Positions 12,790 through 55,977 are shown, numbered from the stretch's first letter. The stretch is 64,000 nt of DNA from Verrucomicrobiota bacterium (GCA_023269615.1 JAHFSY010000011.1:26116-90115), one strand, 5' to 3'. Made by a program: numbers and translations. Notes: a model not told the origin generated them from the sequence alone.

Positions 12790-12810
12790 TAAATTTGGAG
12801 GAGGCGATTG

Positions 12811-12934
12811 TCCGCAGATTTTCAGAATGACGAACCTTTTTCACGCAGCACCGCTGCGTGAAAAAGCTTTGCGCCTTCGCGTCTTTGCGCGAACCCCTCC
12901 GAAAATCTGCGTCCGTCTGCGAAATCTGCGGAGA
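12811..12934. repeat. Degenerate gene-less CGCAGAT-repeat element with internal hairpin
   Basis: TCCGCAGATTTTCAG ... AAATCTGCGTCCGTCTGCGAAATCTGCGGAGA; perfect 14-bp-arm hairpin 12836-12866 (possible bidirectional terminator). Confidence 0.7.
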
Positions 12935-13026
12935 ATTTCCGACGGCAACAGGGCTCTGCTCCGCTTGAAAGGCAATCTTGCGCAAAACATTCCTTCAATC
13001 CATAATCCCCAACCCATCGCCCCTCC

Positions 13027-14578: not shown

Positions 14579-14661
14579 AACCACGGATGGGCGCAGATGG
14601 GCACGGATCAAACTGCTCAGGCCCTGGCTTATCCGTGTTTCATCCGTGTACATCCGTGGTT
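14579..14661. repeat. Inverted pair of CACGGAT triplet repeats
   Basis: AACCACGGATGGGCGCAGATGGGCACGGAT ... ATCCGTGTTTCATCCGTGTACATCCGTGGTT. Confidence 0.85.
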
Positions 14662-22591: not shown

Positions 22592-23230
22592 CGCATTAAA
22601 ATTCCAGCGAAGCTCAAGGTCTTTCCAGGCGGTTGTCCAGTGCCTCCGCCGCTTATGTTGCGCAACGCAACAGGGCGGCTGCGGCACTGGACAACCTCAA
22701 TTTTCCACGGTTGCGAATGGGTTAAAAAGTCGCGCATTTAACTTCTGGAGAGTTACCGGATGGTATTCAAACTTGGAACACTGCCATCCCACAGGAAAAG
22801 AGGGAAAACAACCACGGATGACACGGATGGGCACGGATGATGCTGTTTTTGCTGTGCCAAAACAGCGTCTTCGCTCTGAATTATCACCTGCAGGGACAGT
22901 GTCCGCAACAGCGGACGCTGGCCCATCCGTGTTCAATCCGTGTTATCCGTGGTTCCAATGCTTAATCTCAATTTTCTGCCGACCGAAGGGTTTCCCTCGT
23001 GGACATGAACAAGGAAGCCCAGTTATTGGCGACCGTGGTGTTCCGGTTCACTCTTTAAATTGTAGCACTTGTCTGAAACGGAGCGGTTGTCGAGGGCCGT
23101 AGCCGCCCTGTTGCGTTGCGCAACATAAGCGGCGAAGGCCCTCGGCAACCGCGTGAATCCCTTGCGCAACGCTTGAGACCGGGAAAGCCTCCGAACCGCA
23201 TTTCCAGCGTTCAGATTGAATTTTAATGCG
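22592..23230. repeat. Non-coding nested inverted-repeat structure
   Basis: 13-bp IR 22592-22604/23218-23230; 66-bp hairpin elements 22631-22696 and 23085-23150 (inverted); CACGGAT pair 22810-22954. Confidence 0.8.
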
Positions 23231-43983: not shown

Positions 43984-44650
43984 GCTCATCCGCAAACCGC
44001 ACGTTCACATTGTGATTCGCGCCATCCGAAAAATCGTGGAGCAGCCACGTCTTGACGAATTCCTCAATCTGCTTGCGCCCCTGCTCGCGCACCAGCGGGA
44101 TGTTTTGTTTCGCGCGCTGGATCGAAAACCCTGTAAGCGATTCCTTCAAGTCCTGCATCACCGGACCCTCGCGCCTCCACACGCTGGATTTCACTTCGCG
44201 GTATTCGATGCGTGAGGCGTCAATCGCCGGCTTGTTGAACTGGATCGGGGGCGCGATGACATTCACTTCCCCACCCTGCACCGTAAACTTCCACGTTCCC
44301 TTCAAATCCACAAAGTACGTGTAATCCACTGGAGCCTTGGCCTCGACGACGACCTCGGGCAGCGGGATGCCCATGACAAGGCGTTCATCGTGACGCTCGA
44401 AGATTTCGGTTTGCGAGAGCGTGGTGAACTGCAGGCGACTGGTGGGTTGGATTTGCGTGGTGTAGCTTTGGAAGAGTGTGGTGATGGTTCCCGAGTTGAA
44501 TGCTTTTGCGAGTGTGGAAGCAGTTTCAGCGGATTTTCGTACAACTTCGCGGACGGTCCACGCGAGGATGAGCGCGACGGCAATGACCATCACCGCCTTC
44601 GCCCATGCGGTATGCGGGGAAGGTTGCGCGGGAGACGGCGAAGAATCCAT
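43928..44650 (-). CDS. Single-TM hypothetical protein (DUF4230-like)
   Basis: N-terminal TM, Y.Y.VDL..W, V.APP motifs. Confidence 0.6.
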   Translation of the reverse strand: MDSSPSPAQPSPHTAWAKAVMVIAVALILAWTVREVVRKSAETASTLAKAFNSGTITTLFQSYTTQIQPTSRLQFTTLSQTEIFERHDERLVMGIPLPEVVVEAKAPVDYTYFVDLKGTWKFTVQGGEVNVIAPPIQFNKPAIDASRIEYREVKSSVWRREGPVMQDLKESLTGFSIQRAKQNIPLVREQGRKQIEEFVKTWLLHDFSDGANHNVNVRFADELTPESKPDRLLPPARKAR

Positions 44651-44756
44651 GACTTCAATTTGCGGCAAAGGCGGCAATTCCGCAAGCCCGCGCCCTCACG
44701 CCCGATTTCTCCGCAGATTACGCAGACAGACGCAGATTTCCGGACCCTTGATCCCG

Positions 44757-44884
44757 ATCTGAGGCAGCGGTTGGGTTGGTGGATGATCGCTTGCATGATG
44801 ATGCTGTTGAGCATAGATATGTCCATTCGTGAACAGCCAAACCCAACAAGATTTGCATCCACCAACCCAACCGCTGCCTCAGAT
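44757..44884. repeat. 128-bp MITE-like unit with 29-bp perfect inverted arms
   Basis: ATCTGAGGCAGCGGTTGGGTTGGTGGATG (44757-44785) / 44856-44884. Confidence 0.85.
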
Positions 44885-45293
44885 GGTTGTGCCTGTTCGG
44901 AATGAGAAGGATCAAGAAACCCATGCGATTATCGGTGCGGCGATGGAGGTGCATCGCACGCTCGGACATGGATTCCTGGAAGCGGTTTATCAGGAGGCCA
45001 TGGCGGAGGAGATGGCCATTCGTGAGATTCCGTTCAACAGGGAGGTCGAGATCGAAGTTCATTACAAAGCCCGAAGGCTCGGCACGACGTACAAGGCGGA
45101 TTTTGTCTGCCATGGCTCCATCATCGTCGAATTGAAGGCGATCGGCCTTTTGTCAGCGAAGGATGTGGGACAGGTGATCAATTACTTGAAAGCGAGCCGT
45201 CTGCAACGCGCCCTCCTTTTCAATTTTGGCACACCCAGTTTGCAATTTGAGCGCGTCGTTTCAAACTACGACACCCGATCTGCGAAATCGTGA
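44883..45293 (+). CDS. GxxExxY protein (PD-(D/E)XK nuclease family)
   Basis: IIGAAMEVH..LG.GFLEAVY, ADF, IIVELK, QVINYLKA, LLFNFG. Confidence 0.92.
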   Translation: MVVPVRNEKDQETHAIIGAAMEVHRTLGHGFLEAVYQEAMAEEMAIREIPFNREVEIEVHYKARRLGTTYKADFVCHGSIIVELKAIGLLSAKDVGQVINYLKASRLQRALLFNFGTPSLQFERVVSNYDTRSAKS

Positions 45294-45380
45294 GATTTCG
45301 CAGATCTGGATCAAGGGTCCGGAAATCTGCGTTCGTCTGCGTAATCTGCGGAGAAATCAGGACCAAGGGCCGTTCCGCGT

Positions 45381-46583
45381 TCAATGCCTCCGTCGAACCA
45401 CGTCCTTTTGCTGGACCGTGCTCGCATTGTATTCGGCAGCCTCCTTCGCATCGAAGCGATCGGGGGAGAACGCGCGGATATCAATGCTCGTTTTTCCATC
45501 GACCACATATTCCGCCAAAAGCAGTCCTGCCACGGGGTTGTACGCGAATCCTCCGGAATGAAACGCCACGCCCACGTAAAAACCGGGGATCTTCCCGATC
45601 GGTCCCAGGATCGGCTCACCGTCCATCGCAAACGTGAGGAGTCCGATTTTTTCAATTTCCCATGTCGTGTTCGCCATGGCAGGCGCAAGGGTCGTGAATG
45701 TCTTTTTGTGATTGTCCTTGAGCACGGGATCCACCGTGAGCGAGGACATGTGGAAGTCCGAAGATGTCACGCGATATTCCTCGCGCTCGGCAGTTTCGTA
45801 CCCCATCAGCATGCGCCCGTCGTGCGCGGGACGGATGTAGCCGCCCAGCGGATTCGCGTTGATCGCCGGAATCCGCAAGGGCGGCGTCATGGGATGGGTG
45901 ACGTATCTCTGATGCACGAACGCCTTGACGGGAAGCTGCAAGCCGACCTTCCCGATCAATGTGTGCGTCCACGCATACACCGTGCAGATCACGGCGTCGG
46001 CTTCGATGACGCCCTTTGGTGTTTTCACGCCCGTCACGCAGTCACCTTTCATGATGAAGTCGGTGACCGTTTCATTTTCACGGATCTCAACACCCATTTC
46101 CCGGATTTTTTGCGTGATGGCCGGAATGTATTCGTTCGGCTCGCTGTAACCGCCCAGCGGGTCGAGGAGCCCAATGAAGTCCTCCCGTGGTGTGAGATCG
46201 GGCCAGCGCTTGCGGATTTCAGCGGAAGTCAGGATTTCGAATGGCGCACCGAGCCGCTTGTACAGGGGAAGCAGGACTTCACGATCCTTCCATGACTGGG
46301 GATCGAACAGGTTGAGGCATTGCACGTCGTTGAAACGATAACCGTACGGGGAAAGCTCCTCGGAGAGTTCACGATAGAGCGACAGACTTTTCTTGCGTGC
46401 AAGCACCCCGGGTTCGCTCCAGAGCAAACCGGTGATGATCCCGGCGGCACGGCTGCTGGAGCCGTCGCCGACAGGCCCTTTGTCCACAAGGATGACCTTG
46501 CCGAATTTCTTGCGCGCAAGGTGGTAGGCCGTGCTGAGGCCGGTCACGCCGCCGCCGAGAATGAGTGCTGTGGATGATTGCAT
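45381..46583 (-). CDS. FAD-dependent oxidoreductase (DAO/sarcosine oxidase beta-like)
   Basis: ILGGGVTGLSTAYHLA, GSS.RAAG, D..PILG, C-terminal FSPDRF. Confidence 0.85.
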   Translation of the reverse strand: MQSSTALILGGGVTGLSTAYHLARKKFGKVILVDKGPVGDGSSSRAAGIITGLLWSEPGVLARKKSLSLYRELSEELSPYGYRFNDVQCLNLFDPQSWKDREVLLPLYKRLGAPFEILTSAEIRKRWPDLTPREDFIGLLDPLGGYSEPNEYIPAITQKIREMGVEIRENETVTDFIMKGDCVTGVKTPKGVIEADAVICTVYAWTHTLIGKVGLQLPVKAFVHQRYVTHPMTPPLRIPAINANPLGGYIRPAHDGRMLMGYETAEREEYRVTSSDFHMSSLTVDPVLKDNHKKTFTTLAPAMANTTWEIEKIGLLTFAMDGEPILGPIGKIPGFYVGVAFHSGGFAYNPVAGLLLAEYVVDGKTSIDIRAFSPDRFDAKEAAEYNASTVQQKDVVRRRH

Positions 46584-46766
46584 ATTTGCGTGAATGAATA
46601 ATTCAGCGGTTGGGACCCGAGGCGATTTGTTGGGCGAGTGGGGGCGATTTGCAAGTGAAATGCAGTTTCGCGTTTGCACTCTTATGAGACCTCAGCAACC
46701 TACAGCCGAAACCCCACATTTCTGCCGCGCTTGCCATGCCCTCCCCGCCTCTGGCAGTGTCCCCTC

Positions 46767-47729
46767 ATGCGAATTTTATCGGGGATCCAGCCTTCCGGGA
46801 CGCTGCACATCGGAAATTATTTTGGGATGATGCGGCCGTCCATCGAACTCCAGCAGAAGGGGGAGGCGTTTTATTTCATTGCCGACTACCACGCGCTCAC
46901 ATCGATCCATGACGCGAAGTTGCTGAGGGAATATTCGAGAGATGTGGCCCTGGATTTTCTTGCCTGCGGGCTGGACCCAGCGCGGGCGATTTTATTTCGC
47001 CAGTCGGATGTTCCCGAGGTGACGGAGCTGGCGTGGCTGCTTTCGGTGGTGACGCCCATGAGCCTTCTGGAGAAGTGCCATTCGTACAAGGACAAGACGG
47101 CGAAGGGTATTGCGCCGACGCACGGGCTGTTTGCGTATCCCGTGCTGATGGCGGCGGACATTTTGATCTACCAGTCGGACGTGGTGCCGGTGGGGCGCGA
47201 CCAGAAGCAGCATGTGGAGGTGACGCGCGACATTGCGGTGAAGTTCAACGCGCAATTCGGCGAGGTGTTCAAGCTGCCCGAGCCCCAGATCCGCGAGGCG
47301 GTGGCCCTGGTGCCGGGGAGCGACGGGCAGAAGATGTCGAAGAGCTACAACAATACGATCGAAATTTTCGGGGACGAGAAGGCGTTGAGAAAGAAAGTCA
47401 TGGGCATCCAAACTGACAGCCAGCCGCTGGAGGTTCCCAAGACGGATTTGGAGAAAAACCCGGCATGGCTGTTATTGAAATTGCTCGCGTCCGAGCCGGC
47501 ATTCGCGGAGATGGACCGGAAGCTGCGCGCGGGCGGGACAGGATATGGAGATTTGAAGAAAGCGGTGTTTGAGAACTACTGGGCGTATTTCGCGGAGGCG
47601 CGGAAACGGCGGGAGGGATTCCTGAAAGATCCGTCCGTCATTGACCGGGTGTTGAAGGAAGGCGCGGAAAAGGCGCGGCCGGTGGCAAGGGCGACACTGG
47701 ACCGGGCGAGGAAGGCCGTGGGGTTGTGA
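46767..47729 (+). CDS. trpS: Tryptophanyl-tRNA synthetase
   Basis: SGIQPSG.LHIGNY, YPVLMAADIL, VPVG.DQ, KMSKS. Confidence 0.96.
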   Translation: MRILSGIQPSGTLHIGNYFGMMRPSIELQQKGEAFYFIADYHALTSIHDAKLLREYSRDVALDFLACGLDPARAILFRQSDVPEVTELAWLLSVVTPMSLLEKCHSYKDKTAKGIAPTHGLFAYPVLMAADILIYQSDVVPVGRDQKQHVEVTRDIAVKFNAQFGEVFKLPEPQIREAVALVPGSDGQKMSKSYNNTIEIFGDEKALRKKVMGIQTDSQPLEVPKTDLEKNPAWLLLKLLASEPAFAEMDRKLRAGGTGYGDLKKAVFENYWAYFAEARKRREGFLKDPSVIDRVLKEGAEKARPVARATLDRARKAVGL

Positions 47730-47742
47730 GCGGCGGCGGCGA

Positions 47743-48092
47743 GTTTCGCGCAAAGACGCAAAGGCGCAAAGCCTTCCCTTGGTCCCGATTTCTCCGCAGA
47801 TTTCGCAGATGGACGCAGATTTCTGAACGGCAAACAACCGTGCCATTCTGATTGAAAGCCAAGCTTTCAATCAGAATGGCACGGTGGGATCACGGGCTCC
47901 GCCGGCAGCAGGAAAACTTGGCGCCTTTGCGTCTTCTCGCCTCGCCAAAGCCTACGGCGTAGCGCGGGTGCGCGAAACCTTCCGAAAATCTGCGTCGCTC
48001 TGCGTTAATCGGCGGAGAAATCGGGCGTGAGGGCAGGCCCGGATTTATGGATTCACTTTCTTCTGGATTCTGACTCCTGACTCCTGAATTCT
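47743..48092. mobile_element. Gene-less derivative of the GxxExxY element interleaved with other repeats
   Basis: Ends 47776-47823 and 47986-48034; 23-bp-arm hairpin 47837-47885; CGCAAAG pair 47743-47771/47917-47978; 33-bp insert 47936-47968; CTCCTGA heptamers 48061-48092. Confidence 0.7.
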
Positions 48093-48099
48093 TCCCACC

Positions 48100-48915
48100 A
48101 TGTCCGACTACAAGGTTCAACTTGACGAAGTGTTTGAAGGCCCGATGGACCTGCTGCTTTACCTCATCAAGAAGAACGAGGTGGACATCTACCGCATCCC
48201 GATCTCAAAGATCACGTCGCAGTACATGGAGTATCTCGACCTGATGAAGATGATCGTTCCCGACGTGGCGGGGGAGTTCGTGGTGATGGGAGCGACGCTG
48301 ATGTACATCAAGAGCCGCATGTTGCTTCCCGAGGACCAGCAGGTGGCGGACCCCGAGGCTGTCGCGGACGAGATGGACCCGCGCTGGGATTTGATCCGCC
48401 AGCTCGTCGAATACAAAAAATTCAAGGAAGCTGCAGAAGACTTGCAGCAACGCGAACTTTTCCAGGAGAGCGTGTACTCGCGCCAGCAACAGGGCTTGGG
48501 GTTCGACACGCCGACGGAGGACGGTCCCTCGCTGGGCGACTTGAGCGTGTTCGACCTGCTCAACGCGTTCAACCGGGTGCTCAAGCGTTCCGACGCAGCG
48601 GACGATTTGCGCGATATTTTTGAGGACCGGTTCACGGTCAGCGACAAGATTGATTTCATCCTGAAGCTGACGGCGGTCGAGGAGCGCACCTCGTTTTCAC
48701 GGCTGTTCGACGGCATGGCGTCGAAGACGGAAATCATCGTCACGTTCCTGGCGTTGCTGGAGCTGATACGCCTCCGGCAGTTGCGTGTGGCGCAATCGGA
48801 ATCATTTGGCGAGATTGACATTGTGCGCGTGAAGCAGGAGGAGGCCGCAGCGCCCGCACAAACCGAGGGCGGCGAAACAGAACCGGGCTCGACAAGCGGG
48901 CCGACGAACCCTTGA
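48100..48915 (+). CDS. scpA: Segregation and condensation protein A
   Basis: FEGPMDLLLYLI, IKSRMLLP, TFLALLEL. Confidence 0.93.
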   Translation: MSDYKVQLDEVFEGPMDLLLYLIKKNEVDIYRIPISKITSQYMEYLDLMKMIVPDVAGEFVVMGATLMYIKSRMLLPEDQQVADPEAVADEMDPRWDLIRQLVEYKKFKEAAEDLQQRELFQESVYSRQQQGLGFDTPTEDGPSLGDLSVFDLLNAFNRVLKRSDAADDLRDIFEDRFTVSDKIDFILKLTAVEERTSFSRLFDGMASKTEIIVTFLALLELIRLRQLRVAQSESFGEIDIVRVKQEEAAAPAQTEGGETEPGSTSGPTNP

Positions 48916-55825: not shown

Positions 55826-55977
55826 AAAGCCACGGATGAACACGGATGAAACACGGATAAGCCAGTGCTTGGCACACCAAGCACTGGCAGAACCAGCAAT
55901 CATGGAGGGCTTATCCCTCTATTTTGGCTGTGCCAAAATAGAGTATCCGTGACAATCCGTGTTTCATCTGTGGCTTT
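55826..55977. repeat. Inverted pair of CACGGAT triplet repeats with two internal palindromes
   Basis: AAAGCCACGGATGAACACGGATGAAACACGGAT ... ATCCGTGACAATCCGTGTTTCATCTGTGGCTTT; hairpins at about 55861-55888 and 55917-55943. Confidence 0.85.

Follow-up and report, generated by a model that had tools for sequence, protein, structure and literature searches.

What kind of unit is formed by a small nuclease gene lying between two inverted arrays of one short word, and what has the nuclease to do with the words that frame it? The question is raised by a locus in a 64,000-nt stretch of a Verrucomicrobiota bacterium (G000:C18:26116-90115, the whole of which is called the window below; the source genome, G000, amounts to 4.48 Mb in 131 contigs with 58% G+C). 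The locus holds a gene of the GxxExxY family (PF13366, TIGR04256) bounded by inverted repeats of CGCAGA(T/C) heptamers, which we call element A, and a gene-less unit, element B. The first-pass annotation of the window had seen in them an autonomous/non-autonomous transposon pair with asymmetric ends, a view contradicted by the tips and by the interior of B; recent transposition was not seen. We propose, with a probability of roughly 0.55, that element A belongs to a widespread class of cassettes, not found described in the open-access literature, that consist of a nuclease gene and heptamer arrays. The protein would act on its own arrays, either in a way resembling the REPINs (doublets of repetitive extragenic palindromic sequences, REPs) and their RAYTs (REP-associated tyrosine transposases), or by homing. 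There is strong support for the view that nuclease and triplet repeats belong to one system, which is general across phyla.

Element A occupies nearly all of the 703-nt spacer between two minus-strand genes, and its own gene, on the plus strand, runs antisense to both (open reading frame (ORF) 44829-45293, probably starting from the ATG at 44883). The two arms (44692-44761 and 45301-45370, 70 nt) are 89% complementary. In their 58-nt core (44704-44761 and 45301-45358) three mismatches were found, which confirms the inverted repeats of CGCAGA(T/C) triplets, identical at 55 of 58 positions, described in the annotation. From the outside to the inside, an arm is composed of an 11-12-nt tip, GATTTCTC, three CGCAGA(T/C) heptamers, TTCCGGA and a second tip-like motif, CCCTTGATCCC; the heptamers of the left arm follow each other at 9 and 10 nt from start to start (Table 1). 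The perfect 29-bp hairpin that ends at the start codon had no second copy in the genome and is unique to this locus. PADLOC and PHROGs returned no family match, and a promoter and terminator scan of A gave one weak promoter-like site on the minus strand and no terminator.

The protein of element A matched PF13366 with an E-value of 1.4e-37 (129 bits, cut-off 22) and TIGR04256 with an E-value of 1.2e-39 (135.2 bits, cut-off 35). Its catalytic residues are conserved: in 18 aligned sequences E32, D72 and K84 were invariant, and E82, Q96 and Y100 were kept in at least 90%. The RecB-type motifs are present as E82-x-K84 plus Q96xxxY100 (QxxxY). The AlphaFold2 model had a predicted local distance difference test score (pLDDT) of 90.9, and the nearest solved folds found with Foldseek were Cas4 SSO0001, lambda exonuclease, RecE, the AddAB nuclease domains and MGME1, with template modelling (TM) scores of about 0.5. 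A sequence search of the PDB with the protein gave no match and no close structure, and the predicted complex of two copies provided neither support nor a verdict. The function of PF13366 is given as unknown in the relevant part of one paper (PMC3424549), and a cas4 gene is annotated as a GxxExxY domain in a section of another (PMC8934634). In the open-access PMC and bioRxiv texts, without supplementary files, no link of GxxExxY, PF13366 or TIGR04256 to flanking repeats was found.

The arrays are dispersed over the genome in large numbers. The 12-mer TTCTCCGCAGAT occurred 152 times with at most one mismatch, and 101 full three-heptamer CGCAGAT arrays were counted; the exact pattern CGCAGA-N3-5-CGCAGA-N3-5-CGCAGA was present 76 times, compared with 0 for the backwards pattern. 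A blind search for any 6-mer repeated three times at a 7-12-nt spacing yielded 535 loci (1339 positions), against 12 positions in the shuffled genome. The commonest words were CACGGA (85), CGCAGA (76), GGATGA (68), CGCAAA (66), ATTTGA (39), ACGGAG (38), CAGGAT (29), CGCGGA (25) and AATGAA (24). As a test for avoidance of coding DNA by the arrays, open frames of at least 200 codons were taken; they contained 354 of the 535 loci and covered 91% of the genome, a comparison made uninformative by the shadow frames that exist at 58% GC.

Within the arrays the heptamers are conserved and the spacers between them vary freely. Heptamers 1, 2 and 3 were kept in 99, 78 and 94 of the 101 CGCAGAT arrays, respectively, and spacer 2, of the form NNGA, took more than 20 forms. 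Among 18 clean gene-less inverted pairs extracted with the strict pattern, the two arms of an element shared spacer 2 in 2 cases (1.9 expected by shuffling) and spacer 1 in 9 cases (4.8 expected). The word is thus conserved and the pairing of the arms is not, a pattern characteristic of sites that proteins read. A CGCAGAT array was followed by a CGCAAAG array in 19 of the 101 cases and by the GAACGGCA hairpin module in 22.

Seven GxxExxY genes (TIGR04256) are present in the genome and six of them lie between inverted triplet arrays; the seventh, on contig C2, is cut by the contig end and the repeat is visible downstream only. Each gene has one word (CGCAGAT, CGCAAAG, CACGGAT, CACGGAGG, ACAGGAT or AGAGGCAC), the paralogues on C2 and C98 sharing theirs. 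Nearly every abundant array family has one gene-bearing copy, and GxxExxY and PF05635 genes were the sole cargos found between inverted array pairs 400-715 bp apart. The exception is the (GATTTGA)n family, made of runs with a period of 7 and three to five units that stand as single arrays after small G+C-rich hairpins (at G000:C77:35743-35790 and at about 25 further loci, all outside the window); neither an inverted partner nor a cargo gene was found for it. CACGGAT arrays of three heptamers also occur in the window, at 14632-14658, at 22813-22951 (an inverted pair) and at 55831-55857, and this word is that of the GxxExxY gene on contig C109. The genome has two matches to PF01797 (Y1 transposase), both elsewhere and flanked by other repeats, and the heptamer arrays are therefore not ordinary REPs. 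A weak PF01797 match outside the window (G000:C5:13615-13800) has the palindrome GGCGCGCTCGCCGAGCGCGCC on both sides and resembles a REP-RAYT pair of the ordinary kind, separate from the arrays; copies of the GGCGCGCTCGCCGAGCGCGCC REP were found inside some heptamer-array elements.

The word is linked to the clade of the protein. TIGR04256 matches were found in 25 of 41 genomes of the class, and 48 of the 64 GxxExxY loci in these 25 genomes had flanking inverted repeats scoring at least 13 (one of them, L022, is not a heptamer array); four further loci (L002, L003, L018 and L021) showed arrays when other anchors were used. The general form of the word is C-R-C-N-R-R-K. A rapid maximum-likelihood tree was built from 63 proteins, after removal of a truncated row, and 54 of its rows were given a word label by hand. 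Over this tree the word changed 29 times, whereas 300 shuffles of the labels gave 43 changes on average and never fewer than 39; the last base, G or T, changed 4 times, compared with 16.9. As kin share labels, this clustering shows that gene and word travel together, not that one binds the other. The flanking DNA in same-word clades was unrelated except for the pair L010/L048, which indicates that the units have moved. A two-residue K-D-G insertion near the C-terminus (around residue 120) was common to proteins with a word ending in G (CACAGAG, CACGAAG, CGCAAAG and similar) and absent from those with a T-ending word. It marks one clade and may serve as a lead to the reading surface, not as evidence for one.

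The link between word and protein clade extends to other phyla. The 80 closest homologues of the window protein, found with a three-sequence alignment and 52-64% identical to it, belong to Planctomycetota, Acidobacteriota, Chloroflexota, Bacteroidota, Proteobacteria, Gemmatimonadota, Nitrospirota and others. At least two C[AG]CAGAT heptamers lay within 260 nt of the gene in 75 of the 80, compared with 0-7 of 80 for seven other heptamer types, and 77 had at least two copies of the 6-mer C[AG]CAGA on at least one side. The heptamer density fell from 11.4 per kb beside the gene to 1.3 per kb at a greater distance. The loci occupied 57 distinct genomic contexts, and the largest group (n = 14) corresponded to the gltB-gltD spacer. 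A noncoding word that is retained at 52-64% protein identity, while neither spacers nor flanks are, speaks for selection linked to the protein. The closest homologues are found in other phyla, at 62% (a metagenome-assembled genome, or MAG, of Sedimentisphaerales) and 61% (a Solibacter MAG); the best relative of the same family is only 51% identical, which points to horizontal spread of the cassette. The question whether GxxExxY genes elsewhere are bounded by such repeats, which the annotation had posed as a test, is therefore answered positively, both in the class and across phyla.

Gene and arrays also co-occur at the level of whole genomes. The CGCAGA triplet was counted 76 times in G000, 15 times in G033 and 12 times in G006, with 0-4 in the others and 0 everywhere for the backwards control; G006, a genome 55% complete in which the gene was not found, is an exception to the co-occurrence. 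The CACGGA triplet reached 78 copies in G035, 56 in G008, 49 in G000 and 31 in G022, all four of which encode a CACGGAT-type gene, and at most 10 in the others. The 16 genomes without a TIGR04256 match had no CACGGA array except G018, with one. CACAGAG triplets were absent from G000, which has no CACAGAG-type gene, and numbered two to four in four relatives, where they were mostly the flanks of the genes themselves. Amplification of the arrays is thus optional, and it was seen only alongside the cognate gene type, G006 apart.

Empty sites, for which the annotation had proposed a search, exist in relatives at two spacers. The trpS-scpA-scpB junction was visible in 7 of the 8 family relatives with a trpS match, and the trpS-scpA spacer measured 38-159 nt in these 7, compared with about 370 nt here. 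Element B and the CGCAAAG array adjoining it are therefore an insertion relative to them. The closest relative (G002, 80% TrpS identity) shares the promoter-proximal part of the spacer. The sequence TTCTGGATTCTGACTCCTGACTCCTGAATTC, at 48059-48090 of the window just upstream of scpA, is conserved in that relative and is itself a short CTGACTC repeat. The gltB-gltD spacer was readable in 21 of 25 relatives. It was empty or short in 10 genomes (0-71 nt without arrays), held short single arrays in 4 and carried gene-less inverted array pairs in 3, including G000 (C103, L187), where the word is GCTAGCAGC, that of one of its PF05635 genes. One genome (G024) had a CGCAGAG cassette with a decayed GxxExxY gene and another (G025) an AGTTAGA cassette with PF05635; the last two had 182 nt without arrays and 896 nt with another ORF, respectively. 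This spacer has been occupied repeatedly and independently, and is a recurrent landing place (L183-L207).

PF05635, the 23S intervening-sequence protein, is framed in the same way. Five PF05635 genes are present in the genome (G000:C77:27571-27888, which is L160:1501-1818; C124:16180-16491; C103:113926-114237; C103:43873-44160; C109:28842-29150), and four are framed by inverted tandem 7-9-mers (GGATGAG, GAATGAA, CTGTAGG and GCTAGCAGC); the fifth, on C109, has a clear array (AACGCGG) upstream only. One of these cassettes lies between atpA and atpG. In relatives, 23 of 30 PF05635 loci had such inverted repeats.

We propose the following mechanism for the nuclease cassettes. The cassette consists of a minimal RecB/Cas4-like PD-(D/E)XK gene beside, and usually between, inverted arrays of three iterons of about 7 nt placed approximately one helical turn apart, with an iteron word (C-R-C-N-R-R-K) specific to the clade of the protein. 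The protein would recognise its own heptamer array, several protomers sitting side by side, and would cut at or near it; we infer both the binding and the cleavage from the comparisons described above. Cutting would keep the gene and the arrays together, and array-bounded units would spread into short intergenic spacers and across lineages, possibly mobilised as REPINs are by their RAYTs, or possibly through a gene that homes into array pairs. In some genomes the arrays are amplified to dozens of gene-less, palindromic, mosaic intergenic repeats similar to REPs and bacterial interspersed mosaic elements (BIMEs). That the gene-less copies were spread by this protein, and not by another factor, is likewise inferred.

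Several observations weigh against this proposal. The evidence for specificity is all comparative, and co-inheritance of gene and flanks as one unit would by itself cluster the labels on the tree. Only 29 of the 80 cross-phylum loci have a full bracket, 4 have a flipped one alone, and many have only an upstream array in sense orientation or a complete upstream hairpin, which would also fit an operator or an RNA leader. In G029 and G002 the gene type is present with only its own two arrays. The succession of CGCAGAT and CGCAAAG arrays in 19 of 101 cases suggests that the multiplying unit may be a composite of several array families, and not one family under its own protein. The PF05635 product is an Avd-like four-helix bundle, a non-nuclease cargo in the same frame, and arrays of PF05635 type are also amplified (68 for GGATGA, 24 for AATGAA); the nuclease need not be the mobilising enzyme, and amplification without a nuclease cargo is possible. 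The earlier idea that a nuclease recognising the triplets mobilises the element therefore stands in its first half, gene and repeats belonging together, and is weakened in its second half by these cassettes. The copies are old, with no sign of recent transposition or copying bursts. Two groundwater metagenome DNA runs containing the locus showed repeat-driven joints only and no clear empty-site variant; one joint skips 47772-48066, and it was not counted as an empty site as its shorter side has only 26 letters. Finally, in agreement with the annotation, no target duplication was seen at A or B; the exact terminal bases of both are uncertain, and the empty sites in relatives have diverged too far for an alignment.

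Another explanation, which we regard as unlikely, is that element A works as RNA, in the manner of the intervening sequences (IVSs) of 23S rRNA. The inverted arrays of a read-through RNA would pair into a stem cut by RNase III, which would release or silence the small ORF, and the heptamers would be an RNA-binding or autoregulatory site, or stem material. The fold predicted for element A (-342.9 kcal/mol, z -17.8) indeed ends in a stem of about 60 bp, and the upstream array of the cassettes is nearly always in the sense orientation. Cassettes fill the operon spacers cysD-cysN, atpA-atpG and gltB-gltD, and PF05635, which is encoded in 23S intervening sequences, shares the frame. The Coxiella IVS, as portrayed in the part of PMC4990558 that deals with it, is an S23p ORF between terminal inverted repeats cut by RNase III. 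However, the gene-less elements keep the words and not the pairing of their arms, the spacers of which match no better than chance and differ in length, and a stem alone would not need a clade-specific word across phyla. Moreover, the downstream arm is missing at many loci, the gene of A is antisense to both neighbours and the full active site of a DNA nuclease is kept. An Rfam scan of 44000-48600 gave only two sub-threshold miRNA-like matches, on the hairpins, and no rRNA match, and an RNA sequencing run compared with the window had no match to it.

Quite improbable in our opinion is the reading in which the arrays are REP/BIME-like host repeats, spread or maintained otherwise, and GxxExxY is a free-standing homing endonuclease that targets inverted array pairs, its gene sitting inside the split target and spreading into such pairs only. 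PD-(D/E)XK homing endonucleases exist (I-Ssp6803I). The gene does separate the halves of a palindromic site, its word also occurs in gene-less pairs, G000 has one gene per word, and the gltB-gltD spacer holds a gene-less pair in some relatives and a gene-bearing one in others. Nevertheless, the interior of A does not look like a gene-less element into which a gene was added, since it is devoid of the hairpin module and of the CGCAAAG array. High-copy arrays are found only with a cognate gene, which fits repeats that depend on the gene better than the reverse, and the PF05635 cassettes are left unexplained.

The transposon pair of the first-pass annotation had been based on the ends of the two elements. 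The tips of A are those given in the annotation, with GCCCTCACGCCC at the left end and GGACCAAGGG at the right end, and both recur reciprocally at 47776-48034, as seen in two inverted pairs between A and B: I2 (45317-45369/47776-47828, 53 nt, 89%) and I4 (44692-44720/48006-48034, 29 nt, 97%). The two tips are variants of one motif (CCCTNNNNCCC), and an outward tip motif CCCTNNNN[CT]CC, with the consensus CCCTTGGTCCC, was present within 25 nt of 49 of the 101 arrays, compared with 9 of 5000 random 25-mers. The exact tip GCCCTCACGCCC has only three occurrences in the genome: as the left tip of A, reverse-complemented as the right tip of B, and at one unrelated site. The CACG variant that makes up the left tip of A, CCCTCACGCCC, is found elsewhere only in B, reverse-complemented at its right end. 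As the CACG form is confined to the A/B pair, asymmetric ends are not a property of the family. The simplest reading of the shared CACG tip would be gene conversion between the inverted arms of A and B, which lie 3.3 kb apart (29 nt, 97%). An origin by inversion or reciprocal recombination was worked out by hand, and none of the schemes gave the observed arrangement from two ordinary elements.

The interior of B does not derive from A. The two elements share arrays and tips only, and the interior of B consists of other dispersed modules, namely the GAACGGCA hairpin, a reversed CGCAAAG array and the GCGCACCCGCGCTACG module. The best full-length match of B in the genome was 80% over 287 nt, with sub-modules reaching 95% over 103 nt. 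The inverted partner of the CGCAAAG array adjoining B (47749-47771) lies inside B, at about 47911-47940, so that the CGCAAAG and CGCAGAT pairs interleave. B is therefore not a deletion derivative of A, as had been supposed. The decayed copy noticed earlier at 12811-12934 is real, with slightly wider limits and one heptamer on the left and three on the right (Table 1). A literal transposon, with A as an autonomous element with fixed asymmetric ends moving by cut-and-paste or copy-and-paste and B as its internally deleted version, would account for the common terminal inverted repeats and the reciprocal tips, and is very improbable in view of the symmetric tip motif, the CACG form unique to one pair, the unrelated interior of B, the fact that no target duplication was seen and the absence of near-identical copies (best 80%).

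Table 1. Features of elements A and B and of a decayed element (window coordinates).
Feature	Position	Strand	Remarks
Left outer tip of A, GCCCTCACGCCC	44692..44703	+	Unique CACG form of CCCTNNNNCCC, the tip motif of the family
Left array of A: GATTTCTC, CGCAGAT (44712), CGCAGAC (44721), CGCAGAT (44731), TTCCGGA	44704..44744	+	
Inner tip-like motif CCCTTGATCCC	44745..44755	+	Partner GGATCAAGGG at 45308-45317; part of inverted-repeat pair I1
Perfect 29-bp hairpin ending at the start codon	44757..44884	+	Arms 44757-44785/44856-44884, loop 70 nt, 100% complementary (pair I3)
GxxExxY protein gene, 136 aa, minimal RecB/Cas4-like PD-(D/E)XK nuclease	44883..45293	+	Profiles, residues, AlphaFold2 model
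16-nt hairpin across the stop codon of the A gene	45274..45309	+	Arms 45274-45289/45294-45309, 94% (pair I13)
Right array of A, reverse complement of the left: ATCTGCG (45325), GTCTGCG (45335), ATCTGCG (45344), then GAGAAATC	45325..45358	-	Agrees with the left arm at 55 of 58 positions
Right outer tip of A, AGGACCAAGGGC	45359..45370	-	Family-consensus tip
CGCAAAG x3 array adjoining B	47749..47771	+	Array family of a different GxxExxY gene, its cognate, on contig C33 of G000; pair I6
Gene-less mosaic element B	47776..48034	.	Tip CCCTTGGTCCC, CGCAGAT x3 (47795, 47804, 47814), perfect 23-bp hairpin 47837-47885, reversed CGCAAAG array, GCGCACCCGCGCTACG module, reversed CGCAGAT array 47986-48022, tip GGGCGTGAGGGC
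Third, decayed element	12808..12938 (about)	.	One heptamer left, TTCACGCAGC hairpin, reversed CGCAAAG array, three heptamers right; without CCCTTGGTCCC tips

Between A and B lies a gene for an FAD-dependent oxidoreductase (45381-46583, minus strand) that had no match at E <= 1e-40 in any of 9 family relatives; the neighbouring trpS is conserved and syntenic, and the gene order of relatives breaks upstream of trpS, on the side of A. The oxidoreductase gene may be an acquisition bounded by the repeat elements.

The class of nuclease and heptamer-array cassettes proposed here can be compared with four known systems. With the REPIN-RAYT systems, as described in parts of PMC3116915, PMC3337134 and PMC5581495, it has in common a usually single-copy gene flanked by its own inverted repeat, tens of gene-less intergenic inverted doublets, one gene per repeat family, and copies that are old and diverged. 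It differs in the enzyme, which is a PD-(D/E)XK RecB/Cas4-like nuclease (PF13366) instead of a Y1 HUH transposase (PF01797), and in the repeat, which consists of three direct heptamers with free spacers instead of a short imperfect palindrome (the REP hairpin). The cassettes are also found in many phyla with signs of horizontal spread, and the genome has its own RAYT-like gene with a different REP. With the 23S IVSs carrying an S23p (PF05635) ORF it shares a small ORF whose flanking terminal inverted repeats can pair into a long stem, a frame that the PF05635 genes of this genome and of its relatives also have. The units described here, in contrast, are located between protein-coding genes, have a nuclease cargo and arms made of clade-specific tandem words, and exist in many gene-less copies. 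A sporadic distribution, suspected horizontal transfer and an unknown origin and function, reported for the IVSs in the relevant part of PMC4990558, are further points in common. Insertion sequences and their miniature inverted-repeat transposable elements likewise have terminal inverted repeats and short, gene-less, intergenic copies; here, however, there is no known transposase family, no target duplication was seen, and the short copies are mosaic and diverged and not deletion derivatives. Free-standing homing endonuclease genes similarly lie inside an apparent split palindromic site of which gene-less versions exist, whereas the site is here a multi-copy dispersed repeat with arrays intact on both sides, and there is no intron or intein.

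PF13366 is a large family present in many phyla, and the link between its clades and a 7-nt word gives it a concrete, testable substrate. The cassettes suggest where a large part of the intergenic repeats of this genome, with its 535 triplet-array loci, may come from, and add a second type of enzyme to the REPIN-RAYT idea of a repeat family living with one cognate gene. The PF05635 parallel touches the old question of what the ORF-bearing intervening sequences of 23S rRNA are. As a broader and tentative view, which we hold at less than even odds, GxxExxY would be a cross-phylum family of minimal sequence-specific nucleases in which the clade sets a word, C-R-C-N-R-R-K, read three times. Together with the PF05635 cassettes it would form a new class of selfish or domesticated repeat systems that give rise to REP-like mosaic repeats in Verrucomicrobiota as well as in many other phyla and explain the origin of the ORF-bearing rRNA IVSs. 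If it is true that the clade sets the word, these nucleases of 120 aa could become small retargetable DNA-recognition modules.

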